IMG/VR virus record: IMGVR_UViG_3300017780_002066
Span: 1 to 38,384 of that record
Source of the DNA: a virus
Lineage: Duplodnaviria > Caudoviricetes
DNA length: 38,384 nt
Strand: one strand, 5' to 3'
The notes under the pieces were generated by a model. The model saw only the letters and a program-made list of their open reading frames with translations, was not told the DNA's origin and did no database searches. The position numbers were made by a program, and so were the translations under genes. Within the stretch, counting starts at the first letter, position 1. Each line of letters begins with the position of its first letter. Shown one piece after another: positions 5,904 to 31,961 of the stretch.

Positions 5904-6858
5904 TTTTAAAATAATATACGTCAATTGGACTCAACCTTACTTTAATAAGAAGAAGTTTACAGGTATAAAAAGCTATCTAAAAGATACGCCGGAAGAAGCC
6001 CTTGAATATAAACTGGAAGAGTATGAAAAGCTTATGCAGATTTATAGCTTTACATCAGCTAAAAGGTATACTAATGCTTTAATAAAAATGTATACAGATA
6101 CAGCCGGGTACGAGTATTACCGTAAAGAAAATATGCTACAGTACTTTGATGAGATTGATGTAGACTTTCTTAATTCTGTTAATAAAGACACTCGTATAGA
6201 TGCAGCTCAATTTTGGACTAGCGGTAAGATACTTTCTATATGCAACGAGAAACCTCCATTTTTATTTATGGATACAGACTTCTTCTTACAGGAAGAAATA
6301 CCAGAATGGGTTTTTAAAAAAGATGTAGTACACGCCCACTGGGAACTATTACGAGCATGGTTACACGTACCGGTTAGTAAAGCTAAAGATCAATTCGGAT
6401 TAGATATTCCAGAATTTGCAGATGCAATGTTAATTCCTAACACTTGCTTCCTATTTATGAATGATAACGAAAAGGTAAGAAGTATTATAGAAAGGTATAG
6501 GGAATTACATTTAGAGATTGTAACTAAGAAATACGATTATGTACCAGACGAGTTATGGTTAATGACAGACCAGAACATACTAGGCTACATACTAAGAGAT
6601 AAGGATGCTGATGTCGGTCATGCAATTAATAAGATATATATTCAATTTGCAGACTCGGTTGGGTCTACCGCTGTCGGTAATACACCTAGATGGACACATT
6701 TTGATAATATAAAAAGGAAGTACCCAGAAGTTAAATACCATCACGTATGGTTTGAAAAGATAGGAATGCACTCTGATCCGGAATATAAAAAGACTGTAAT
6801 CGGTAACTGGACAAAAGGAATAGAAGAGAATATTAAAGTTATAAAAAGTAAATTATGA
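5896..6858 (+). CDS. DUF6734-like / GT-A-like protein
   Basis: MYTD, FWTSGKI, PFLFMDTDFF, HAHWE, PNTCFLF, TDQ, YHH motifs. Confidence 0.6.
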   Translation: MSDFKIIYVNWTQPYFNKKKFTGIKSYLKDTPEEALEYKLEEYEKLMQIYSFTSAKRYTNALIKMYTDTAGYEYYRKENMLQYFDEIDVDFLNSVNKDTRIDAAQFWTSGKILSICNEKPPFLFMDTDFFLQEEIPEWVFKKDVVHAHWELLRAWLHVPVSKAKDQFGLDIPEFADAMLIPNTCFLFMNDNEKVRSIIERYRELHLEIVTKKYDYVPDELWLMTDQNILGYILRDKDADVGHAINKIYIQFADSVGSTAVGNTPRWTHFDNIKRKYPEVKYHHVWFEKIGMHSDPEYKKTVIGNWTKGIEENIKVIKSKL

Positions 6859-7298
6859 TATATTGGTTCACAGGACAGCCTGGAGCTGGAAAGACAACTC
6901 TAGCCGATTGGTTAGCTACACATTACCATACTAAAGCTATAAAAATAGATGGTGATGATATTAGAGAGATTTTTGATAATAAAGACTACTCAGAAGCTGG
7001 AAGGAGAAAGAATATAGAGCTTGCTCAGAATATGGCTCACTTCCTCCACCATAAGGACTACAACGTTTTCGTATCGCTTGTATCACCTTATAAAGATCAA
7101 AGAGAAAGCTTTAAAGAGAAGCTAGGAAACGGTATAGTAGAACTCTACATACATGCCTTTGAAGATAGAGGACGTAATCAATTCCACGTAAGCAATTACC
7201 AACCACCTACAGAGAATTTTATAGATGTGGATACAACAAATGATAGTCCTTTTGAATCTTACCAGAAAATTAGAGAGAAGTTGGATTCTAATAATTAA
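6855..7298 (+). CDS. cysC: Adenylyl-sulfate (APS) kinase
   Basis: WFTGQPGAGKTT P-loop, IDGDDIR, YSEAGRRKNI, VSPY, YQPP. Confidence 0.88.
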   Translation: MIYWFTGQPGAGKTTLADWLATHYHTKAIKIDGDDIREIFDNKDYSEAGRRKNIELAQNMAHFLHHKDYNVFVSLVSPYKDQRESFKEKLGNGIVELYIHAFEDRGRNQFHVSNYQPPTENFIDVDTTNDSPFESYQKIREKLDSNN

Positions 7299-7311
7299 AA
7301 TCGTATCTTAA
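7280..7311 (+). promoter_or_regulatory. Conserved phage promoter
   Basis: GTTG-N18-CGTATCTTAA; sits almost directly before the ATG at 7315. Confidence 0.6.
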
Positions 7312-7314
7312 AGT

Positions 7315-7716
7315 ATGAGCAATAAATACTTAGCTACTGCAGCATTTCAATCTTCCTCAAATGTAGTGAAGTATTCTATGTTTATAGGTAGGTGGCAACC
7401 TTGGCATGCTGGGCATCGCTGGTTGATAGATCAGAGATTAAATGAGGGTAAGAAGGTTTTACTAGCAATAAGAGATGTAGAACCTGATGAGAGAAACCCC
7501 TGGAGTGCATTCCAAGTAGCAATGAATCTTGAAGAAGAGCTATCAGATCTAATGGCAGAAGGTAAGGTTAGATTTATTATTATTCCGGATATTGAATCTG
7601 TTAATATTGGAAGAGGAGTTGGCTATGATGTAATCGAGCATATACCACCAGAAGAAGTTAGAGAGATATCTGCTACTGCTGTCCGTAATAAGATGAAAGA
7701 GGAGGGTAAGTTGTGA
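7315..7716 (+). CDS. HIGH-superfamily (cytidylyltransferase-like) nucleotidyltransferase
   Basis: FIGRWQPWHAGH (HxGH), NPW, ISATAVR. Confidence 0.8.
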   Translation: MSNKYLATAAFQSSSNVVKYSMFIGRWQPWHAGHRWLIDQRLNEGKKVLLAIRDVEPDERNPWSAFQVAMNLEEELSDLMAEGKVRFIIIPDIESVNIGRGVGYDVIEHIPPEEVREISATAVRNKMKEEGKL

Positions 7717-7922
7717 TAGTAGAGAGAAAAAGACATATCGCTAAAACTATAAGCTACAGAGTAATAAGTACCGTAATTGGATTCCTACTCATGTGGCTTA
7801 TTAGCGGTTCAGTTAAAGTAGGAGCAGCTTTCGGAGTAGCAGAGTTAATTTATAAACCTATTCAATACTATATACATGAACGTATTTGGTATAAATGGAT
7901 TAAATACGGATTAAAAAAATAA
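7713..7922 (+). CDS. DUF2061 family small membrane protein
   Basis: RHIAKTISYR...YYIHERIW; GTG start overlaps the previous stop. Confidence 0.8.
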   Translation: MIVERKRHIAKTISYRVISTVIGFLLMWLISGSVKVGAAFGVAELIYKPIQYYIHERIWYKWIKYGLKK

Positions 7923-8263: not shown

Positions 8264-8551
8264 ATGGATATGAAAGAGATTATTACTGCCTGGATAATTA
8301 AAGCTAAGCCAAACGATAGTCAAAAGAAACTAGCAGAGGAAAGATATCAAATATGTGAACAATGTCCTGAAAGAAAAAATTTACTTAGTAACCGTAAATG
8401 GTCTGAGCACTGCGGAGAATGTGGTTGCTTATTAGAAGGAAAAGTCTTTACTCGTTCATACGATGCTTGCCCATTGCATAAATGGCTACCAGTAGAAGCT
8501 AAATATTTAAGCGAAATCTCTATAGTAAAAAAAAATAAAACAATTATATGA
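8264..8551 (+). CDS. Small Cys-rich (DUF6171-like) metal-binding protein with basic-TII tail
   Basis: RYQICEQCP...CGECGC...CPLHKW; start reassigned to 8264 (or 8270) by alignment with paralog 19087..19320. Confidence 0.7.
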   Translation: MDMKEIITAWIIKAKPNDSQKKLAEERYQICEQCPERKNLLSNRKWSEHCGECGCLLEGKVFTRSYDACPLHKWLPVEAKYLSEISIVKKNKTII

Positions 8552-9084
8552 TCCCCGGCTTAATTCAAATAGAGGACTTTTTAAAAAACGTAGATGAGAT
8601 TAGAGATCAAGCTTTGAATTTAAAGTACACCCCAGCATTCGAAGAACAAGGATGGAAAGGTTATAGATGTCTAGAACGTAATGAACTAACTACAAAGGTA
8701 ACTGAGTTAGTTAAAGCAGAGTTATCTAAACGAGATGATAAGTTTACTACTGCGGACTACGATTGCTACTTTCATTACACATTACAAAATACTGTAAAAG
8801 AAAAAGGATATTATAAAAACCGTATACATAAAGACCGTCTTAAAGATTACGCAGGAGTTATCTACTTAGCTACAAATCCTATTTCTAATTCTGGAACAGC
8901 TTTTTACGATGAAAACTATATTCAGGTAGCTGAAAGTAAAAATAAATACAATACACTAGTATGTTACCCGGCTAATGTTAACCATGGAATACAAGAACCG
9001 TTTGGGGACTCAAAAGAAAATGGTAGATTGACTTTCACAATTTTTATTGGATTTAAACAGAAGCAATCTAAAACGTTAATATGA
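8548..9084 (+). CDS. 2OG-Fe(II) oxygenase (DUF6445-like)
   Basis: IHKD...YAGVIYL...GTAFY...YNTLVCY...HG...RLT: HxD...H triad plus Arg. Confidence 0.8.
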   Translation: MIPGLIQIEDFLKNVDEIRDQALNLKYTPAFEEQGWKGYRCLERNELTTKVTELVKAELSKRDDKFTTADYDCYFHYTLQNTVKEKGYYKNRIHKDRLKDYAGVIYLATNPISNSGTAFYDENYIQVAESKNKYNTLVCYPANVNHGIQEPFGDSKENGRLTFTIFIGFKQKQSKTLI

Positions 9085-9692
9085 TAACAATCCAGCAATA
9101 TAAAATATCAGATACACTTTCTGTTTATAAGGCTAAGTACGACTGGGAGTATGGACGAGACGAGATCGCATATAGAGTAAAGCAAAACAAATGGCTCTTA
9201 GGTACAACAGACTTTAATACAACTGAAATAAAAGTTAGAAGCGCTGAAATTGACTCTGTAATAGATTACGGAGTACGTATTGCAATGAAGCTATCAGGAA
9301 TAGATACCCTACATGATCGAGCTTGGACAGGAAAGACTTGGAGCTATATTCAAGATAAAAACTCGCAAGATCCTGAAAAAGGATTTCATGTTCATACATC
9401 TACTATTAACTTTCCAGATACTAGAGTAAATGCACCAATACTAACAGATTGGACCTATTGCTTTTATCTACAAGTACCTGATGACTTAAAAGAAAACGAA
9501 GGAAGTTTACTTCTAAAAGATAAGAGTAGTAAGGTTTATGCTATAAAGCCAGAAGAAGGAGATTTTATCTTCTTTAAAGGAGATGTAGAACATAGGCCAA
9601 AACTAGCTCCTAATTCAAAAGGAGTTAGAATAGCCATCTGCTCTAATATTAGCTTTAATATAACAGAAATTAAAAGTGGTAATATACGATAA
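9081..9692 (+). CDS. Putative 2OG-Fe(II) oxygenase
   Basis: FHVH...CFYLQVP...PEEGDFIFF...EHRP...RIAICSNI. Confidence 0.75.
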   Translation: MITIQQYKISDTLSVYKAKYDWEYGRDEIAYRVKQNKWLLGTTDFNTTEIKVRSAEIDSVIDYGVRIAMKLSGIDTLHDRAWTGKTWSYIQDKNSQDPEKGFHVHTSTINFPDTRVNAPILTDWTYCFYLQVPDDLKENEGSLLLKDKSSKVYAIKPEEGDFIFFKGDVEHRPKLAPNSKGVRIAICSNISFNITEIKSGNIR

Positions 9693-10128
9693 TTTATTTC
9701 CGGAAGACTTTTTCGAAGCTATTAAAGTAGAAGGTAAGTATTCTATTGAAGAGGGTCAACAAGACTGTTACAGATTTCGTACCCTTCCTGGTGAATTTGC
9801 AGTAGGTGTAGAGAATTTTCTACTAGGAGTAGGAGTAGAACATCAAGGAGATAAGATGATTATTAGTAAAAGACCTACAGGCTTTATAACAAAGTATAGC
9901 CGGTTTCTAGACGAAAATTTCTCTGTCTTTGTCTATTTTATAAATGAAAATTACACAGGAGGTGAACTTATGTACGAGAAACAAGTAATTAAACCTTTAC
10001 AGAATAGAGGAATATACTTTGACAATATAGATAAATTTGAACTGACAACAGTAACAGAAGGTACCCAGTACATACTAATATCTTATTTTAGAAAAAATAC
10101 AATAAAACAGAAAAAGACACTAATATAA
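9676..10128 (+). CDS. Degenerate prolyl-hydroxylase-like 2OG-Fe(II) oxygenase fold
   Basis: VYFINENYTGGELMY...IKP...VTEGTQY; metal-binding His residues absent. Confidence 0.6.
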   Translation: MVIYDNLFPEDFFEAIKVEGKYSIEEGQQDCYRFRTLPGEFAVGVENFLLGVGVEHQGDKMIISKRPTGFITKYSRFLDENFSVFVYFINENYTGGELMYEKQVIKPLQNRGIYFDNIDKFELTTVTEGTQYILISYFRKNTIKQKKTLI

Positions 10129-10188
10129 AATATATAAAGTGCTTCAGGCTGATATTTATACATAAACGAATTAATTTAAACTCATAAT

Positions 10189-12117
10189 ATGAAAGCTGTT
10201 TTAATAGGAAGTGATTTCTTACTTGATAACGACGGAAATGCAAAACTGGTAGAATTTAATACCAGCGCTGGAGCCTTCCAAAGTATGGTACCTCACTTAG
10301 ATTTTACTGAATTAGAAAACCTTTTACAGGTAAACTCTATAGCAGAGCTTGTTTATATCTTCAATGACGAACAGGTAGTTACGGACCCTAGCTTTAGAGC
10401 AAATATTACAATTGGTAGCGACTTGCAGAATCTCTGCTCAAATCTTGGCATTACCTACACACCCTACCAGGTAAATACGTATTCAACCACAGTACCGTAT
10501 ATTGAGGATAGCCCTACAAAGTTTATACTAAGACAAGCGTTTGATTCAACAGCTTTAATAGATGACGAGTATTGTGCAGATAAAGCAAACTTACAGGTCC
10601 TAATTAAAGATGAATCTTATGCAATACCTACATATATTAATAATCCTGGATACGAACTGAATACGTTAACAACATATAACGAAAATACTACACCAAATAT
10701 TGTAGTTAAGTCTAGACTTCCTCAATACGATGCTAAGGTATACCCGGAAGTACACTCTATAGGTAGCCAAGCAGATTTAGATAACTTAAAGCAAAATACA
10801 ACACATCCTTATTTTATACAAGAGTTTGTTAATTCAACTAATAACGTAAAAGAGGGAAGATATTGTATTATTAGAAGTCTTGATTTAGTATACGGAGCAA
10901 ACTTAGATACTATGCATTTAGGTTCATACCACCAGTCCTCACAATACGCTTTGGATATATGGCCGGATGAACTTCAAGCGAACTCGACTGCCTTAACAAA
11001 TAAATCTAGAGTTAAATGGATTTCTAAGTTAGCAACTGACGAGCAGAAAGGTATATACCATATCGACGAAGACACTAAAATTATAACCGGCACCGGAGCT
11101 TATATAACAATCGATCAAGTAGAACAAGGTACAGTAGTTAAGTCTGCTAACTTTAGTAATTTTCCTACAGGATCTACAGTTAATGTATTTGCATATTCTT
11201 CTTCTTTCCAAGAGATGCAAGACTCCTTAGAAGTTAATACAGCAACAGTAGTAGGCTTTAAAAGTTCAAGCTTAGAAACAGTTTACATAAATGTAACTTT
11301 AGATAGCGGTATTAATTGGGATGACTCTACAAGATCAACTTTTTATACAGAAGATAGCGGAAGTTTAATTACACGTTTTAGATCCTTAGGTCAAGCTAGT
11401 TTAGGAGATAAAGTTATTCTTTTAGATGTTAGCTCAAATGAACTTGTAAAGCAAGAAATAACTGCATTAGAAGCTGTGTACGATACGAAGATAACATATG
11501 AAATGGATGTTGAGGAGCAGGATATATTCTTATCACTTTTAGATGAGGATACTAACATAGCGTTAGTTCAACATAACCCATGTTGGTGCGAAGGATGGAA
11601 TTGCGGGTATTATAGCTGTTATAACTCCTGTGCTGGATGTGGCGGCGGAGGCTGTTTTATCGGAGAAGCAATGGTTACAACACCAGACGGCCAGAAAGAA
11701 ATAAAAGATATTGAAATCGGAGATATAGTTCAATCCTATGATTTTGTTAAAAACGAACTTGTTACAAAGAGAGTAAAAGGATTATGGAAATCTGATTATA
11801 ATAATAAGTTAGTAATAATAAACGGAATAAAAACTAAAGCAACAATAGGACATCCATTTGCGATAAAAGATTTTGAAGGAAATGTAAACTGGGCAGCTGT
11901 AGATCCGAAAGCAGATAAAGAATTCCATAAAGACTATGAAGTCTATCAATTAGAGACTGGTAAATATTTTATTAACCTTATGGGTGATTGGGTAATTGTA
12001 GATTCTATCGAATTTGAAGATTTTAAAGGTATAGTTTACAATATATCAGTTGAAGATACTCATAACTACGTAGCAGAAGGTCTCTTAGTTCATAACATGG
12101 CGAAAAAATTTCAATAA
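10189..12117 (+). CDS. Circularly permuted ATP-grasp - Hint - Cys-rich peptide - Hint fusion (putative autoprocessing precursor)
   Basis: GSDFLLDNDGNAKLVEFN precedes DK, IVVKS, FIQEFV; Hint1 HIDEDTKIIT...TYEMDVE...VQHN; peptide; Hint2 CFIGEAMVTT...ATIGHPF...VYNISVEDTHNYVAEGLLVHN. Confidence 0.8.
   Translation: MKAVLIGSDFLLDNDGNAKLVEFNTSAGAFQSMVPHLDFTELENLLQVNSIAELVYIFNDEQVVTDPSFRANITIGSDLQNLCSNLGITYTPYQVNTYSTTVPYIEDSPTKFILRQAFDSTALIDDEYCADKANLQVLIKDESYAIPTYINNPGYELNTLTTYNENTTPNIVVKSRLPQYDAKVYPEVHSIGSQADLDNLKQNTTHPYFIQEFVNSTNNVKEGRYCIIRSLDLVYGANLDTMHLGSYHQSSQYALDIWPDELQANSTALTNKSRVKWISKLATDEQKGIYHIDEDTKIITGTGAYITIDQVEQGTVVKSANFSNFPTGSTVNVFAYSSSFQEMQDSLEVNTATVVGFKSSSLETVYINVTLDSGINWDDSTRSTFYTEDSGSLITRFRSLGQASLGDKVILLDVSSNELVKQEITALEAVYDTKITYEMDVEEQDIFLSLLDEDTNIALVQHNPCWCEGWNCGYYSCYNSCAGCGGGGCFIGEAMVTTPDGQKEIKDIEIGDIVQSYDFVKNELVTKRVKGLWKSDYNNKLVIINGIKTKATIGHPFAIKDFEGNVNWAAVDPKADKEFHKDYEVYQLETGKYFINLMGDWVIVDSIEFEDFKGIVYNISVEDTHNYVAEGLLVHNMAKKFQ
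11059..11577 (+). other. Hint domain 1 (residues 291-463), N-terminally inactive
   Basis: Aligns to the Hint2 N-terminus with His in place of Cys1; no TxxH; ends YEMDVEEQDIFL...VQHN. Confidence 0.65.
11578..11652 (+). other. 25-aa six-Cys core peptide PCWCEGWNCGYYSCYNSCAGCGGGG
   Basis: Lies exactly between the His-Asn of Hint1 and Cys1 of Hint2. Confidence 0.65.
11653..12096 (+). other. Hint domain 2 (residues 489-636), intein/BIL-like, no endonuclease
   Basis: Cys1, block B TIGH, block F VYNISVE, terminal HN; +1 residue is Met. Confidence 0.9.
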
Positions 12118-12118
12118 T

Positions 12119-12232
12119 ATGGCAAATATAATAAAAACGGTAGTTATTCCTACAACACCAGAAGTAGATTTAAAAGTAAAAAATGTAGTAGAATCGATAC
12201 TAGCGCTAATTAGAGCTAAGCATCTATCGTAG
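12119..12232 (+). CDS. Small hypothetical protein (37 aa, not in ORF track)
   Basis: MANIIKTVVIPTTPEVDLKVKNVVESILALIRAKHLS; starts 1 nt after the precursor stop. Confidence 0.65.
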   Translation: MANIIKTVVIPTTPEVDLKVKNVVESILALIRAKHLS

Positions 12233-12249
12233 TATCTTAAAAAAGTTAT

Positions 12250-12954
12250 ATGTTAGTTGATAATAAGTTTTTGTTTCTAAAGATACCAAGAACAGCTACA
12301 GTAGCATTTGAACGTTCCTGCTTTTTAGCAGGACTTTCTATTAAATACCCTGCCGATAATGTCTTAGCACAAAGACAGGCAGATAAAGGAATTGAACCGT
12401 ATCGACATGCTCACCATCCTGTATCTAAACTTCGAGAATATTTTGGTAACGATTACCCTATTGTAGCAATAACTAGAGATCCTTTAGAAAGGTTTTTATC
12501 TGCCTGGAAGTATACTATTAAACATATTGCAGAAACTAATCCTGAAATATCCAAAGCACTTGAAAAAGTAACTAGTAAGCAGTTTATAAATGCTTGGCAC
12601 TCTGAAATAGGGTACATCGATAATCTTAAGGATATAGAGAAAGCTTCAAATTTTTTTAGGAGACTACTTAAAGGAGGAATTCCTTATAGTAAGAATATTT
12701 TTATGATATTCACTACTGTAATAACAGGGGCTACAAGGTGGCATGAAAACGACCCAAGTATTCTTTACTTTGATATCAAAGATTTAAAAAGTTTAGAAGA
12801 ATATACTAGAGAGGTAACAGGCAAACCCTTTGAACTTATATCAACAAACGATACAGAATTAGTATATACGGATTTAAAAATTGACGAGGAGTTAAAAGAT
12901 TTTTACTTTAAGTTAATAGAACCTCTTTACAAGACTCAAAATACTTTGATATAA
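12250..12954 (+). CDS. Sulfotransferase (Sulfotransfer_2-like)
   Basis: FLKIPRTAT 5'-PAPS loop; RDPLERFLSAW 3'-phosphate motif. Confidence 0.8.
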   Translation: MLVDNKFLFLKIPRTATVAFERSCFLAGLSIKYPADNVLAQRQADKGIEPYRHAHHPVSKLREYFGNDYPIVAITRDPLERFLSAWKYTIKHIAETNPEISKALEKVTSKQFINAWHSEIGYIDNLKDIEKASNFFRRLLKGGIPYSKNIFMIFTTVITGATRWHENDPSILYFDIKDLKSLEEYTREVTGKPFELISTNDTELVYTDLKIDEELKDFYFKLIEPLYKTQNTLI

Positions 12955-12966
12955 CAGTATACTTTA

Positions 12967-12998
12967 GTTGCTTTTTTAAAAGACAATTCGTACCTTAA
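12967..12998 (+). promoter_or_regulatory. Conserved phage promoter
   Basis: GTTG-N18-CGTACCTTAA upstream of the halogenase. Confidence 0.7.
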
Positions 12999-13019
12999 TA
13001 AAAAAGAAAGAACGTTGAT

Positions 13020-14552
13020 ATGAAAAAAATAGTTATATTAGGAGGAGGAACAGCAGGCTGGTTAACAGCTCTATATGCAAAACATCTTTTTGATAAAGCA
13101 GAAGTTACATTAGTAGAAAGTTCAGAAATAGGAATATTAGGCGCTGGGGAAGGATCAGTACCCTTATTACCCCTTTTCCTACAGACTCTAGGGATACCTC
13201 TAGGAGAGTTTAAGAGAGAGGCCCACGCCACTTTCAAAACGGGTATTAGGTTTACTAACTGGAAAGGAGATGGTACAAGCTACTTACACCCTTTTACAGC
13301 ACCTCCTGGTTCTACTTTAGATTTTCAAACAATACATTCTCTAGGATTTAATCATGCAAAGAAAATACCTAATACTAATAAAGCATACTACATCCTTAAT
13401 GCACTAGCAAATAAAGAAGACTTAGAAGAAGTAATACCAACAAATGTATTAGTTAATAACCAGAAGAGCCCATTTTATACAGAAGATAATAAAACACTAA
13501 CCTCCTCAGGTTATTCCTTTCACTTTAATGCCCGTAAGGCAGCTATATACTTAGCAAAAGTTGGGGAGAGTAGAGGTATTAAGAGAGTTGATTCAAAACT
13601 TACAAAGATCTCTTCTAAAGAAGACGGAACGATTACTTCAATAGAACTTAAAAATAAACAAATTTTAGATTTAGATTTTATATTTGACTGTAGCGGCTTT
13701 AGTAGACTCCTTATAGGTAACTTCTATAAAACAGAATGGATTTCCTATAAGAAATACCTTACAACAGATTCAGCAGTACCCTTCTTTATACCCCATAAAG
13801 AAAAAATAGTACGTCCAGAAACAAACTGTATTGCTATGAAGCATGGCTGGATGTGGCAGATACCGGTAAAACATAGATGGGGGATGGGTTACTCTTTCGA
13901 TAGTAACTACATAACTCCTGAACAAGCTTATGATGAAATTGAAGAAGTATTAGGACATCCTATAGAAAGGTTAGGTAAAGTATTTCAATTTAATGCCGGA
14001 AGGTATAAAGATGTTTGGGTTAAGAATTGTATGGCAGTTGGTTTGAGCTCTGGATTTGTGGAGCCTTTAGAAGCCACCTCGTTAATGATTGCAATCATGC
14101 AACTAATTAACTTAGATACATCTATGATAGTAGAAAATAATAAAGAAGATACAGATCAATATAACAAAGCTATTGCATTGTTAAACCACGAAGTGATGTG
14201 CTTCTTATATTACCACTTTAGTACAATAAGAGAAGATACTCCGTTTTGGAAAAACTATAAAGACAAGACTAATGTACCGCCAGGATTAGATAAGATGTTA
14301 AAAATATGGGAAAGAAGAAATCCTAAAGATTTAGATTTATTTGAACTAACAGGAGGAGCAGTTTTTGGTATCTATAGCTGGTACATAGTAGGAGCAGGAA
14401 ATGGAACGCTTAATATGGAACTTATAGAAAAAGAAAATAAACTTTTAGGTTTAGATGAAAAATTAAAACCCTTTAAAGATAAATTAAAAAAATACCTAAA
14501 AGAAGTTGTTGATAACTCTATAGATAATATACAGATTCAACATGGAGATTAG
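13020..14552 (+). CDS. Flavin-dependent tryptophan halogenase family protein
   Basis: GGGTAG, GAGEG, ATFKTGIRF (catalytic Lys), WMWQIP (WxWxIP), GFVEPLEATS. Confidence 0.92.
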   Translation: MKKIVILGGGTAGWLTALYAKHLFDKAEVTLVESSEIGILGAGEGSVPLLPLFLQTLGIPLGEFKREAHATFKTGIRFTNWKGDGTSYLHPFTAPPGSTLDFQTIHSLGFNHAKKIPNTNKAYYILNALANKEDLEEVIPTNVLVNNQKSPFYTEDNKTLTSSGYSFHFNARKAAIYLAKVGESRGIKRVDSKLTKISSKEDGTITSIELKNKQILDLDFIFDCSGFSRLLIGNFYKTEWISYKKYLTTDSAVPFFIPHKEKIVRPETNCIAMKHGWMWQIPVKHRWGMGYSFDSNYITPEQAYDEIEEVLGHPIERLGKVFQFNAGRYKDVWVKNCMAVGLSSGFVEPLEATSLMIAIMQLINLDTSMIVENNKEDTDQYNKAIALLNHEVMCFLYYHFSTIREDTPFWKNYKDKTNVPPGLDKMLKIWERRNPKDLDLFELTGGAVFGIYSWYIVGAGNGTLNMELIEKENKLLGLDEKLKPFKDKLKKYLKEVVDNSIDNIQIQHGD

Positions 14553-14928
14553 TAAATTTACACTTGTAGTAATTAAAGGAAGAGGTACTGGGGTTTTCTC
14601 AAATGTTTACCTTAACGCAGAAGATTTAGTAGGTACTTATGTAGAAAATAAACCTAATAGAATAGGGAGAAAACTCACAGGCACTTTATGGGAAGCTGAC
14701 CCTTTAGGTAGATTCTGTAACCACAGTGAACGTCCTAACGCTACGTTAGTACAAACTGAAACTGGATACAATCTATACGCTAATAGACCTATTGATAAAG
14801 GCGACGAAATTACGGTTAGTTACCATGTAGTAGAATTTAAACTAGGACGACCTAAAGGTGAGTATTATAAGCCAGGCTTTACAGATAAGATTTACACTAA
14901 ATTCGGCAAGTCAGTATGCGAATATTAA
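14542..14928 (+). CDS. SET domain methyltransferase
   Basis: GRGTGVF, RFCNHSERPNA, ANRPIDKGDEITVSY. Confidence 0.88.
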   Translation: MEISKFTLVVIKGRGTGVFSNVYLNAEDLVGTYVENKPNRIGRKLTGTLWEADPLGRFCNHSERPNATLVQTETGYNLYANRPIDKGDEITVSYHVVEFKLGRPKGEYYKPGFTDKIYTKFGKSVCEY

Positions 14929-15479
14929 TCTACGCTCTACCTAGAACAGGTTCTAACAACCTTACACATTATATAGCAAATTCTCTACACTATAAAGAAA
15001 TTATAGAACCTTATAACGAAAATCGGTTTTGGGACAAAGACTTAACTGAGTTTGATATTTGGGAAAGAGATAACGTAGTAGTCAAAATGATGCTTGAACA
15101 AGGAGAAGAGAAATATAAAGACGTATCTGCTAAATTTGATAAAACAGTTATAATATATAGAGAGAATATTATTGAACAAGCAGAAAGTTTTGTTCATGCT
15201 ACCAAGTCTATTGATTGGCATGCTCCCTATGTATACGACCCATCTAAAGTAGATCAGAATGAGTATTTAGAAACTCTAGATAAATTTAATAGCCGTTTAG
15301 AAAACATTAAAAGCTACAACCACTTTACAGTAACTTACGAAAACCTATATCTTTCTGGAATAGATAGAGATAGGGTAGATGAGTATATAGGTATAACTAA
15401 TAAATCATTTCGCTTTATGCTTGATAGTCGAAATAAGTACAGAAAGAGTAGCGTAGAGGAAAAGAGAACTCTAATATAG
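14916..15479 (+). CDS. Sulfotransferase (Stf0-like P-loop)
   Basis: ALPRTGSNNL, EPYN, YRENIIEQAES, TYENL. Confidence 0.72.
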   Translation: MRILIYALPRTGSNNLTHYIANSLHYKEIIEPYNENRFWDKDLTEFDIWERDNVVVKMMLEQGEEKYKDVSAKFDKTVIIYRENIIEQAESFVHATKSIDWHAPYVYDPSKVDQNEYLETLDKFNSRLENIKSYNHFTVTYENLYLSGIDRDRVDEYIGITNKSFRFMLDSRNKYRKSSVEEKRTLI

Positions 15480-17648: not shown

Positions 17649-17903
17649 ATGTCAACACAATTAGAACTAGATTTTGGACCTGAATTTACTTCAGAACCAC
17701 TACCACAGCTCAACTCAGGACATTACTTAGAGTTAATGGATAGGCTTTATATTATGATGAATAATTTAAACGATCATGCTGTAATGCATCCACTTTCAGA
17801 TAACTATACAGAGATCAAAAGCCTGTTACTACTGGCTATGGATAAGATGTGGGAAGCTTATCAGCTTATCGGCAATATAGAGTATACAAATATAAACAAA
17901 TAA
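17649..17903 (+). CDS. Hypothetical protein
   Basis: Start reassigned to ATG 17649 (MSTQLELDF), just after the previous stop. Confidence 0.65.
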   Translation: MSTQLELDFGPEFTSEPLPQLNSGHYLELMDRLYIMMNNLNDHAVMHPLSDNYTEIKSLLLLAMDKMWEAYQLIGNIEYTNINK

Positions 17904-19086: not shown

Positions 19087-19320
19087 ATGAATAAGATCTT
19101 TGAGATAGTAGAAGCCTGGTCAACAGCAATGAATCCTTCGCCTATTCGAAAAAGGTTAGCAGAGATTAGATATAAGATTTGTGATACTTGTGAAGATAGA
19201 GGAGTAAATGCCTTTGGTATGGAAGTATGTAATGCATGCGGATGTGCATTGAAAGGTAAAGTATTCACTTCAGCAAGACCTGAACAAAAGAACTGTCCAA
19301 AAGGAAAATGGCCAGCTTAA
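19087..19320 (+). CDS. Small Cys-rich (DUF6171-like) protein, paralog of 8264..8551
   Basis: RYKICDTC...CNACGCALKGKVFT...CPKGKW. Confidence 0.75.
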   Translation: MNKIFEIVEAWSTAMNPSPIRKRLAEIRYKICDTCEDRGVNAFGMEVCNACGCALKGKVFTSARPEQKNCPKGKWPA

Positions 19321-26995: not shown

Positions 26996-28174
26996 ATGAA
27001 GATAGTCCATAGTTACATTCCTACTGCCTTTGGCGATAAACCAGCCCCAGATCTTATTTGGAAGGAGTTAATGTATGGTCAGATGTTAAGCGTATTACTA
27101 GCTCAAAGGGAGTTTGGTAATATTAGCTTATATACAAACGAACATATAGCTCGTCAGATAAAAGATATAGGCATACCTTATACAGATATTAATACATCAG
27201 TACTAGAAGGAGTAAGTAGTAAAAGCTACACTTACCCTAAGATGAGAGTATTTAGAGAGATAGGAGAACCTTATCTTCATATCGATACAGATACTTTTGT
27301 CTTTAAGAAGCTAGACTTTAGTAAAAGTAAAAGCCCAGTAGTATATGCTCACTCAGATCAAGCTGTAGAATTTAAAGAGAAGGTTGATTCAGATGTACTA
27401 AGCCGGTATATTAATAATATTTCAAAATGCTATACTAGTCTATTCTTTTTGCATGATGATGAGTTAAAGTCATTTAACCCTCCTAATGTTAACTTAATGA
27501 AGATACCTAACGGTAATCTAACCTATGTTAGAGACCCTAAACTCTTTATTGAAGCAACTAATAAAGCATTAACGTACTACTACAAGCATAAGGATATTAT
27601 CGATAGAAATACTTACGGAGGAGTTTATGTAGAGCAGATGATTATACATTTGTACCTAATGGAGCTAAGTCCGGAGTATAAAGAAGCAGTAGATGAAAAT
27701 AAACATTTGGTGTGTGATAATATCTTTATGCATATAGATTATGGCTGTAAAGATAATACTACAGACTATCTTAATTACAACTTTCCTTTCAAGTTTAAAT
27801 TACATACCCTAAAGGACGGTTATATCTCAGAACTAGAAGAGGCTAAAAAAGTAGCTAGCAACTTAGGGTTTAAATTAGAGAAAGATGTTTATAAAGAGTA
27901 TACAATAGAGAACAAAGAAGACTTAGTTAAATACTTTAGTCACGATTTCTTAGGAGTATTACACCCAAGCTTTAATAAATGGGCTCCTATTTTTGAATGT
28001 TTAGCTATTGGAGCAATAGTAGAGCAATTTGGTCCGGAGTATGTTAGAAATGTACACAACTTTTATACACATTCATGGGATAGGTATCAACTAAATTTAG
28101 AACCTTATTCTAGAGGAGAGAAATTATATGCTGACATTACAGGATTTAAGTTTAAAGAATCAGGAATCATATAG
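26996..28174 (+). CDS. DUF6734-like / GT-A-like protein
   Basis: LYTN, YPKM, PYLHIDTDTF, YAHSD, PN, VEQ; same motif order as 5896..6858. Confidence 0.65.
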   Translation: MKIVHSYIPTAFGDKPAPDLIWKELMYGQMLSVLLAQREFGNISLYTNEHIARQIKDIGIPYTDINTSVLEGVSSKSYTYPKMRVFREIGEPYLHIDTDTFVFKKLDFSKSKSPVVYAHSDQAVEFKEKVDSDVLSRYINNISKCYTSLFFLHDDELKSFNPPNVNLMKIPNGNLTYVRDPKLFIEATNKALTYYYKHKDIIDRNTYGGVYVEQMIIHLYLMELSPEYKEAVDENKHLVCDNIFMHIDYGCKDNTTDYLNYNFPFKFKLHTLKDGYISELEEAKKVASNLGFKLEKDVYKEYTIENKEDLVKYFSHDFLGVLHPSFNKWAPIFECLAIGAIVEQFGPEYVRNVHNFYTHSWDRYQLNLEPYSRGEKLYADITGFKFKESGII

Positions 28175-28816
28175 ATGAAAGACAACGTAGTTATATCTTT
28201 AGTAGGAGTTAATAGTTACCATGTAAGTAACTGTGTAAGCACCTATAGGTTTTTACAAGAAGAAGGCTATACAGTAAAGGTATTAACTAACCGTCAAGAC
28301 TTATTTGACCCGGTAGATGTTTACGTATATAAGAGAAAGATCTTTACATACTTAGATAAACTTTTATACTGTTTAGATTTAGTCGAAGAATATAAATGTA
28401 GTGTCTTATACTTAGATTCTGATAAGTACTATCCCTACCATCAGATAAAAAGCTTTATAGAAAGATCACAACAACATCAGATAACCTATCAAGGTAGCTG
28501 GCCAGGAGGTAATTTTGATGCTTATAGAGATGTTAACCCATGCTTTAAATACCTAAAAGAGTATTGTGAGTATAAAGGAATAGAATATAAGAATTGGGAA
28601 ACAATGTGGGAATATGTAATGTTTTTTAGAGATGATATAGACTATGAAGCAATAAGATATGAGTTAGAAACAATAGCCCCAGTCTTTACTTATATGTCTT
28701 TAATGAACAACGACACTTATAATAAGACGCCCTTTGCATTAGGAGGAGCAGAAGGATTAGCATTGAGTATAGTATTAGATAAATTAGGAATTGAATCACA
28801 CGAAATTTTAATATAA
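28175..28816 (+). CDS. GT-A-like (DxD) protein
   Basis: VLTN, FTYLDKL, LYLDSD, AEG. Confidence 0.55.
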   Translation: MKDNVVISLVGVNSYHVSNCVSTYRFLQEEGYTVKVLTNRQDLFDPVDVYVYKRKIFTYLDKLLYCLDLVEEYKCSVLYLDSDKYYPYHQIKSFIERSQQHQITYQGSWPGGNFDAYRDVNPCFKYLKEYCEYKGIEYKNWETMWEYVMFFRDDIDYEAIRYELETIAPVFTYMSLMNNDTYNKTPFALGGAEGLALSIVLDKLGIESHEILI

Positions 28817-31448: not shown

Positions 31449-31961
31449 ATGAAATTCAATTATTCAAAAGACGTTATCGCCGGTATCAAGACATCTAAAG
31501 TAGCTAACAAAGAGACTAACGATTGTGTAGTCAAAGCAGTAGCAGCCTCTATAGGCGTTACTTATGATGTAGCTCATTCATTCGTTAAAGAGACCTTCAA
31601 GAGAGAAGATCGTAAAGGGGTCCTTAATAAAGAGATTATAGAGAATATGTCTAAGCTATCTGAGGTAGGTGTGACTAAGGTTGGTACTAAAGAGGTATCA
31701 TTCGAGGTAATGCCTAAGCAAGCTATCACTAACATGTATAAGTTATATGGAGAGTTAATCTATAGACAAAAGACTGTTAAGAGCTTCTTACAAGACCATA
31801 AGGTAGGATCGTATATCGTTACAGTAGCTAAGCATGCCTTTGCTGTAGTAGATGGTGTACTAATAGATAATGAAGGTACTGAGTATAAGCCTACTCGTAA
31901 GGTACAATCAGCCTATAAGGTAATAGATAAGACAGCCGATATACAATTAAGCCTAATATAA
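31449..31961 (+). CDS. Hypothetical protein, possible papain-like Cys/His peptidase fold
   Basis: NDCVVKA...KHAFAVVDG. Confidence 0.55.
   Translation: MKFNYSKDVIAGIKTSKVANKETNDCVVKAVAASIGVTYDVAHSFVKETFKREDRKGVLNKEIIENMSKLSEVGVTKVGTKEVSFEVMPKQAITNMYKLYGELIYRQKTVKSFLQDHKVGSYIVTVAKHAFAVVDGVLIDNEGTEYKPTRKVQSAYKVIDKTADIQLSLI

Follow-up and report, generated by a model that had tools for sequence, protein, structure and literature searches.

Why should proteins of unrelated families, encoded side by side in one phage, end in nearly the same few residues? The question is raised by a gene block of IMGVR_UViG_3300017780_002066, an IMG/VR virus record (Duplodnaviria; Caudoviricetes) analysed here over its whole length, a 38 kb fragment of 38,384 nucleotides (nt; about 34% G+C) that we refer to as the window. 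Five proteins of the block carry a short C-terminal tail, or tag, ending in Thr, Leu or Ile, and Ile, and at the centre of the block lies a gene for a protein of 642 amino acids (aa), which we call the hub. The tag is a real, strongly selected and apparently undescribed pathway label, C-terminal docking and targeting peptides as such being known. Across hundreds of related phage loci, enzymes from more than a dozen unrelated families carry it next to this one self-cleaving, ligase-like hub. In the reading that we favour, with a probability of roughly 0.5, sequence comparisons point to a protein-level label on unrelated tailoring enzymes encoded beside the hub, which would act as a non-covalent docking peptide to the hub complex.

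The C-terminal tail in the window

The five tagged ends had been read from the sequence in an initial annotation, and they are correct: KKNKTII at 8551, KQKQSKTLI at 9084, KQKKTLI at 10128, YKTQNTLI at 12954 and EEKRTLI at 15479, each directly before the stop codon. The last codon is ATA in 5/5, and the stops are, in order, TGA, TGA, TAA, TAA and TAG. With the residue frequencies of the window, T-[LI]-I ends are expected 0.05 times among the 75 called genes, and the probability of at least five is 2e-9 for a motif that was picked post hoc. The features concerned are listed below by position and strand.

8528..8551, + strand: tag KKNKTII and stop of a small six-Cys protein (8264-8551; phrog_13558)
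9061..9084, + strand: tag KQSKTLI and stop of a DUF6445 oxygenase-like protein (8548-9084)
9081..9692, + strand: untagged 2-oxoglutarate (2OG)-Fe(II) oxygenase with intact metal ligands and a 17-nt overlap with the next gene
10105..10128, + strand: tag KQKKTLI and stop of an oxygenase-fold protein (9676-10128) without both metal-binding His
10189..12117, + strand: hub gene, untagged, candidate reader of the tag
12119..12232, + strand: conserved small protein of 37 aa, untagged, ending K-H-L-S, directly 3' of the hub and its candidate partner
12931..12954, + strand: tag KTQNTLI and stop of a sulfotransferase (Sulfotransfer_2; 12250-12954)
13020..14552, + strand: untagged flavin-dependent (tryptophan) halogenase
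14542..14928, + strand: untagged SET-domain protein
15456..15479, + strand: tag EEKRTLI and stop of a sulfotransferase-like protein (14916-15479)
6855..7922, + strand: untagged sulfate-activation genes (APS kinase, nucleotidyltransferase, DUF2061), an internal control
19087..19320, + strand: paralogue of the six-Cys protein, untagged and located outside the cluster, ending right after the shared domain
26996..28174, + strand: DUF6734 protein ending KESGII, a possible weak or relic tag

The ascription of the tag to the proteins of the cluster holds for 5/8 of them, since the oxygenase at 9081-9692, the halogenase at 13020-14552 and the SET protein at 14542-14928 are untagged. Two weaker ends had been listed with their correct sequences; the one at 28816 is probably a chance end rather than a tag, its family showing a terminal pair of Leu/Ile residues in 1/9 members, and the family of the protein ending at 28174 shows such a pair in 3/5. 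The protein at 14916-15479, which had been labelled a second sulfotransferase, is without a Pfam match, and in profile comparison it resembles the first one only weakly (probability 4%, E 0.01).

Non-enzyme hypothetical reading frames outside the cluster had been described as lacking T-L/I-I ends. The protein at 31449-31961 ends in QLSLI, a different motif because its three homologues end in QLSLDFS, QLSLDFS and QLELF. Motifs of the QL[SD]LF type bind the sliding clamp, and both this C-terminus and an N-terminal QLELDF (17649-17903) resemble them. As an explanation of the tag itself, a sliding-clamp-binding motif, which has Gln-Leu ahead of the terminal hydrophobic pair, does not fit, positions -5 and -4 of the tag being mostly K/N.

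Distribution of the tail across protein families

We collected 159 loci around homologues of the hub, leaving out the record of the window. The counts that follow are of related sequences, not of independent events, and the 20 tagged families were picked for showing the tail, so that their pooled counts describe the motif and are no unbiased test of it. The 2202 unique called proteins end most often in TLI (190), SLI (121), KLI (65), SII (62), TII (47), TLL (41) and SLL (38). A terminal pair of Leu/Ile residues is found in four families of 2OG oxygenases (181/190, 66/92, 19/21 and 7/7), in sulfotransferases (103/104) and sulfotransferase-like proteins (86/89), in the six-Cys protein (68/86), halogenase (57/82) and SGNH-like (64/75) families, in DUF6445 (20/21), radical SAM (17/19), DUF6734 (18/18) and FkbM methyltransferase (5/5) proteins, and in three unnamed families (20/21, 10/17 and 10/11). 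In DUF6445 the tail is present in 21/21 homologues at 43% identity or more vs 0/3 distant ones. Pooled, such ends occur in 766/875 members of tagged families vs 38/941 of other families and 37/386 of small families. At least ten of the tagged families have profiles that do not match one another; cross-matches are confined to those between oxygenase families and a single stray hit.

The consensus is K-x-x-K/N-[T/S/K]-[L/I]-[I/L]-COOH. Its best-kept feature is the pair of large hydrophobic terminal residues (823/875); K, R or N stands at -4 in 616/875 and K at -7 in 436/875, and Ala occurs at -2 in 1/875 and at -1 in 4/875. The framing of the tag as a class I PDZ ligand, offered in the initial annotation, is not supported: an end of the form S/T-x-hydrophobic, found in 5/5 tags of the window, is kept in 539/875 members of tagged families (62%), less well than the hydrophobic pair, and no PDZ domain was found in the proteins scanned. 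Apart from these families, a protein of 117-119 aa without a known family is often tag-ended (KKTLI, SKKLI, VRKLI, IKSFI; G001 38608, G002 166507, L469:1668-2027, L548:7614) and can lie 12-13 kb from the hub.

Linkage of the tail to the hub gene

The position of the tail relative to the hub was examined in five large phage records (G001, G002, G004, G005 and G008), with 1649 genes called by a simple open-reading-frame rule and those within 10 kb of the hub counted as near. The strict form of the tail is carried by 32/134 genes near the hub vs 8/1515 beyond (Fisher p 1e-29), and among members of the tagged families by 28/45 near vs 0/39 far. These counts rule out a genome-wide background as the source of the tag, which thus survives the first refutation proposed in the initial annotation, an equal frequency on unrelated genes. 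Within the window, the six-Cys paralogue at 19087-19320 stops at the end of its domain, and the copy in the cluster adds a linker of 20 residues and the tail.

A second scan started from the motif, with DNA of viral contigs searched for K-K-T-L-I-stop, and gave 120 loci, 80 of them with long flanks; the match is the end of a called gene in 17 loci. All loci with at least three tagged genes (4/4, on 3 contigs) hold a hub, including one of a new hub class, and two more tagged oxygenases sit in hub-holding records. The matches L161, L180, L206, L257, L259 and L167 are unrelated proteins, with no hub in the three records checked, and L203, L177, L274 and L217 lie on fragments too short to judge. 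In the oxygenase/halogenase arrays of five hub-less cultured cyano- and pelagiphages (from 124 annotated features), the strict tail is present in 0/39 genes.

Selection at the protein level

The variation of codons in the window had been taken as a sign of selection on the protein, and this interpretation is upheld by free codon use, independence of gene spacing and the exact C-terminal position. Within the tail, Thr and Leu codons are used as in the background, Ser is encoded by TCN as well as by AGY, and the last codons of orthologues include ATA, ATT, ATC, CTA and TTA. In tagged families the tail is kept at any spacing to the next gene: in 264/290 cases with an ATGA overlap, in 173/194 with a 1-nt overlap and in 125/140 with a gap above 40 nt. 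The sequence K-[TS]-[LI]-[LI] is terminal in 327/875 members vs 0.38 expected, and 1-5 extra residues follow the motif only once, which indicates that the free C-terminus matters.

The tail could instead be a by-product of constraints on the DNA, such as an A-rich start region of the next gene or ATGA and TAATG overlaps, or a chance effect of AT-rich sequence. Start regions are indeed A-rich (A 0.59 at -3 in 947 genes), and in other families ends with two Leu/Ile residues are more frequent at 1-nt overlaps (9/40) and ATGA overlaps (9/95) than at gaps above 40 nt (4/310). However, this overlap-raised background stays far below the tagged families, whose tail holds at every spacing, with varied Thr, Leu and Ser codons and varied last codons in orthologues; at gaps above 40 nt, ATT (58) exceeds ATA (47) among the rows listed. 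We therefore consider a by-product of this kind extremely improbable. The coupling of ATA and stop that had been named as a second possible refutation is itself refuted as main cause by the spacing and codon data, the ATA bias being a side effect of gene overlap.

The hub gene and the small protein behind it

The hub consists of an ATP-grasp domain (aa 1-282), a first Hint domain (Hint 1, aa 287-463), a Cys-rich peptide of 25 aa (11578-11652), a second Hint domain (Hint 2, 11653-12096) and a Lys tail of 6 aa; the hub Hint domain ends His-Asn. Domain 1 resembles glutathione-synthetase-type carboxylate-amine ligases (YgiC: Z 9.8, root-mean-square deviation 3.9, 200 aligned), and the residues D9, E22, N24, R115, K132, K174 and R229 of the ATP-grasp part are kept in 24/24 aligned hubs; the hub is likely a carboxylate-amine ligase. 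Fold searches with the whole hub list Hint and ATP-grasp folds only. A Lys behind the Hint domain is present in 77/77 and 34/34 single-Hint cargos of clades I and II, and it is the only cargo Lys in 75/77 and 28/34, respectively. In double-Hint hubs, 21/22 cores are without Lys and 22/22 final tails contain it, a placement which suggests that the core is spliced to the tail by Hint 2 and that the ATP-grasp domain uses this Lys as its amine acceptor.

A small protein is encoded one-to-one behind the hub in 152/155, 26/26, 4/4 and 58/60 loci. The clade I type has 37-50 aa and ends in K-H-L/S, with 1 of the 152 adjacent ones no homologue by eye; in clade II it is replaced by a protein of 24-29 aa ending in A/T/V-N-S. 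The 37-aa protein has no match in Pfam and none in the Atlas above 0.77, and neither it nor the ATP-grasp part has an Atlas match of at least 0.9. With the one pattern scanned, no hub was found in bacterial or archaeal genomes, and in cultured phages there were only Hint matches, in eight Vibrio phages.

A profile search yielded 534 hub-like representatives, of which 129 were placed in a quick-method tree, and four further clades were sampled (clade VI being one locus). All hub clades have in common the ATP-grasp domain with catalytic-type residues, the first Hint domain, a Lys following Hint 1 and, directly after the gene, a small helical protein. Two hydrophobic terminal residues are found on the tailoring families beside hubs of clades I-V in 111/111, 197/216, 111/117, 15/16 and 203/228 proteins, with Lys at -4 throughout. 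The hubs of clade V have no Cys-rich peptide; they carry 0-12 residues in its place, they have additional Hint domains, and most of them end in a Lys. Since their neighbours are still tagged, the Cys-rich peptide is ruled out as a required partner or reader of the tail. The 37-aa protein as sole reader is weakened by clade II, which has a different small protein and the same tag. A search for a different tag co-varying with distant hub clades found none; the TKV/SKV ends seen in clade IV come from an unrelated family of repeat proteins in L611, where eleven paralogues of 98-145 aa with repeated units (L611:16-5190) nearly all end in KL[ST]KV.

Other hub variants (P0073, P0164, P0187 and P0242; L469 and L503) either have S74-chaperone-like tails that score below the curated cut-off, or contain BACON domains, in a form of 1667 aa, or combine several Hint domains with hardly any cargo. 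As a lead only, the S74-like and BACON domains hint that the product is a part of the virion surface. One record, G006, contains two hub genes 38 kb apart. Hint domains related to that of the hub are also found in G001 at 162853 (L338:10853-12112) and in G004 at 117851 (L352:3851-5512), where they adjoin the tail sheath gene and occur with Ig-like or LamG domains.

Proteins without the tail

In the same gene blocks, the strict tail is found in the hub in 0/106 cases, in the nucleotidyltransferase in 0/61, in DUF2061 in 0/50, in the carbamoyltransferase in 0/18 and in APS kinase in 2/44. It is also absent from the conserved glycosyltransferases, epimerases and PhyH dioxygenase encoded elsewhere in the G004 genome. 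By contrast, 18/190 oxygenases have lost both catalytic His and 18/18 of these dead enzymes keep the tail.

Untagged oxygenases of the family at 9081 are directly followed by a dead tagged protein in 12/13 cases, as in the window, vs 0/79 for its tagged members. The overlapping genes at 9081-10128, an active untagged oxygenase and a dead tagged oxygenase-fold protein, are a possible adaptor pair.

Possible functions of the tail

A tail that is carried by enzymes that would act at the hub and not by makers of diffusible cofactors, kept on dead enzymes and lost in paralogues that have moved away fits a recruitment signal. In an AlphaFold2 model of the sulfotransferase the last 11 residues are coil after helix 213-223 (confidence 80, then 65), and the tail is predicted to lie free behind the fold. 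If the tail is a docking peptide, its two terminal hydrophobic residues and carboxylate may insert into a pocket on a constant part of the hub, either the ATP-grasp domain or Hint 1, perhaps completed by the 37-aa protein, and its lysines may add charge attraction. The enzymes would then take turns at one shared site and modify either the variable cargo or anything joined to that cargo by ligation. The initial annotation had proposed a docking signal or else a degron; the tail tracks a precursor-like hub gene, an indirect sign that fits docking better than degradation.

Several results weigh against docking to the hub. In the window, 3/8 enzymes of the cluster have no tag. The looser end with two Leu/Ile residues is also found on 12/39 far members of tagged families and on 65/1515 far genes, and in L194 a tagged oxygenase is encoded on a hub-less fragment of 64 kb (33% complete). 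As a control, the cultured phages that have no hub do not separate the hub from the host, since their hosts differ. The 12 cases of an untagged oxygenase with a dead partner form one clade (support 83/85) and are thus a single event; the dead tagged oxygenase could instead stem from an insertion that captured the tail, and untagged halogenases have a dead tagged partner in 0/19 cases, the halogenase-SET pair included. Furthermore, the tail is nearly constant among hubs that have diverged to 23-30% identity and are followed by small proteins of different types, a pattern which fits a conserved host reader equally well.

Among the rival explanations, the tail may be a substrate of ligation, with the ATP-grasp domain activating the C-terminal carboxylate of the enzymes and joining it to an amine, for example that of the single cargo Lys, to tether them covalently. 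The need for an exact C-terminus, the likeness of hub domain 1 to glutathione-synthetase-type ligases with its residues conserved in 24/24, and the Lys always present behind the Hint domain all speak for it. Nevertheless, the carboxylate would more naturally come from the small protein, which adjoins the hub one-to-one and has a conserved C-terminus of its own (K-H-L/S or A-N-S); with a single Lys, each hub could accept one enzyme; and the third-last residue of the tail varies (T, S, K, N, E), which leads us to regard covalent tethering as unlikely. A wider proposal, which we hold to be doubtful, is a self-contained system of protein conjugation: the ATP-grasp domain would read K-x-x-K-T-L-I and join the Hint-released cargo, at its invariant Lys, to the tagged enzymes or, once these have docked, to the small helical protein, and the enzyme-loaded scaffold would decorate a hypervariable peptide of the virion surface. 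If this were true, the tail would be a portable tag of four to seven residues that serves recruitment or ATP-driven ligation at the C-terminus and has no relation to the ubiquitin, Pup and sortase systems.

Two further explanations place the reader in the host or elsewhere in the phage. As a degron for a host protease (ClpXP of the C-motif-2 type, Lon, FtsH or Prc), the tail would make the enzymes short-lived; its basic run and nonpolar end are like RRKKAI, given in the cited sections as the ClpX C-motif 2 degron of MuA (PMC8138137, PMC12723719), and the exact C-terminal position, like the constancy of the motif among diverged hubs, agrees with a conserved reader in the host. This is quite improbable given the near-absence of Ala, which is typical of ssrA and MuA ends, at the last two positions, the 18/18 dead enzymes that keep the tail, and its absence from the co-clustered sulfate-activation enzymes, from paralogues of the same families elsewhere and from the glycosyltransferases, epimerases and PhyH dioxygenase. 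The tail may also be read by a partner other than the hub, such as a host PDZ or TPR protein or chaperone, a membrane site, or a site of procapsid or fibre assembly where the hub works too. The constancy of the motif across diverged hubs, the S/T-x-hydrophobic ends, which fit class I PDZ binding, and the S74-chaperone-like (below the cut-off) or BACON domains of some hubs, typical of virion fibres, agree with such a partner. We judge it improbable as well, since no PDZ, TPR, Clp, encapsulin or microcompartment domain was found in the 120 of 144 conserved G004 proteins that were scanned, the linkage to the hub is tight, and the hub itself is untagged, which would be odd if all must reach one compartment. 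A secretion signal was set aside by inference, as the enzyme families need cytoplasmic cofactors.

The source phage

Ribosomal protein bS21 is encoded at 45-236 of the window (Pfam E 1e-11), and G001, a relative with a complete genome, has genes for capsid, portal, terminase and sheath proteins of the T4-like kind. We infer that the source phage belongs with the large bS21-encoding freshwater myoviruses, for which the cited part of the source predicts Bacteroidetes as hosts (PMC9723584). The pathway occurs widely among large T4-like phages of aquatic habitats, whose hosts are probably Bacteroidetes. In four runs, 25-30 of the 30 bins into which the cluster was divided are covered by metatranscriptome contigs, which as contigs cannot show transcription.

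Comparison with known systems

By the tests run, no known docking or targeting system matches the tag in both motif and reader. No paper on the tag or the hub was found in the literature, supplements and subscription papers lying outside the search, so that the gene tables of PMC2938197, PMC7824862 and PMC9723584 could list these genes. The tag marks members of the pathway: DUF6445, DUF6734 and several families without a Pfam match become assignable by their last residues. If docking is confirmed, a tail of seven residues and one reader domain would make a compact tool for the co-localisation or ligation of enzymes; if ligation is what the tail serves, the tag would be categorically new.

The closest likeness in form is the docking of short linear motifs (SLiMs) to beta-hairpin domains in nonribosomal peptide synthetases (NRPS) and hybrids with polyketide synthases (PKS), where, according to the sections cited, a disordered C-terminal motif of less than 15 residues is bound by its last five, combines charge with a hydrophobic face, is promiscuous and also occurs on oxidases (PMC9113145). 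The phage tail is similarly short, although its coil is only predicted, and the tail-less six-Cys paralogue ends at the domain boundary. As far as those sections describe it, the SLiM lies mostly on carrier proteins and its beta-hairpin reader on the enzyme, within an assembly line; here the motif is on many free enzymes, the folds of the hub match Hint and ATP-grasp, and no NRPS or PKS domain is present in 30 window proteins or 30 neighbour-family representatives.

Short terminal peptides on the unrelated enzymes of one cluster are also used for cargo loading of encapsulins and for encapsulation in microcompartments. These peptides have other sequences, the tag is phage-encoded, and no shell-protein family was matched in the window proteins, the neighbour-family representatives or the 120 G004 proteins. 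The MuA degron shares with the tag its basic residues before a nonpolar, Ile-ended C-terminus, on a phage protein with a host reader in the case of MuA; unlike the degron as described in the sections cited above, the tag has no Ala, ends in two large hydrophobic residues, prefers T/S and is found on a set of enzymes tied to one gene. In class I PDZ ligands (S/T-x-hydrophobic) and the peroxisomal targeting signal 1 (PTS1; S-K-L), the free carboxylate and the last three residues matter. The tag resembles them in its free carboxylate and in the S/T at the third-last position of 62% of tags, and differs in its strict Leu/Ile at the second-last position and its Lys at -4 and -7; no PDZ domain was found in 30 window proteins or the 120 conserved G004 proteins, and no TPR domain in those 120.

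Tandem 2OG-Fe(II) oxygenases, tryptophan halogenases and related tailoring enzymes are known from arrays of T4-like cyanophages and pelagiphages, for example Syn9 gp41-54, in the sections cited (PMC2938197, PMC7824862). These arrays differ in having no hub gene and no shared tail (0/39), and neither is mentioned in those sections of the two papers. In peptides made on the ribosome and modified after translation (RiPPs), a leader, bound by the RiPP recognition element (RRE) of the enzymes, offers a constant region that recruits many tailoring enzymes to a variable core, and in borosins the enzyme is fused to the cargo. The hub system would share both features and is unlike RiPPs in that a short peptide is on the enzymes and not on the precursor, release appears to be Hint-based, and clade V hubs are almost without a core. 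RiPP logic would thereby be inverted: the enzymes would bear the recognition peptide, and the substrate carrier its reader. In this way a few added residues can bring many unrelated enzymes into a single phage pathway.

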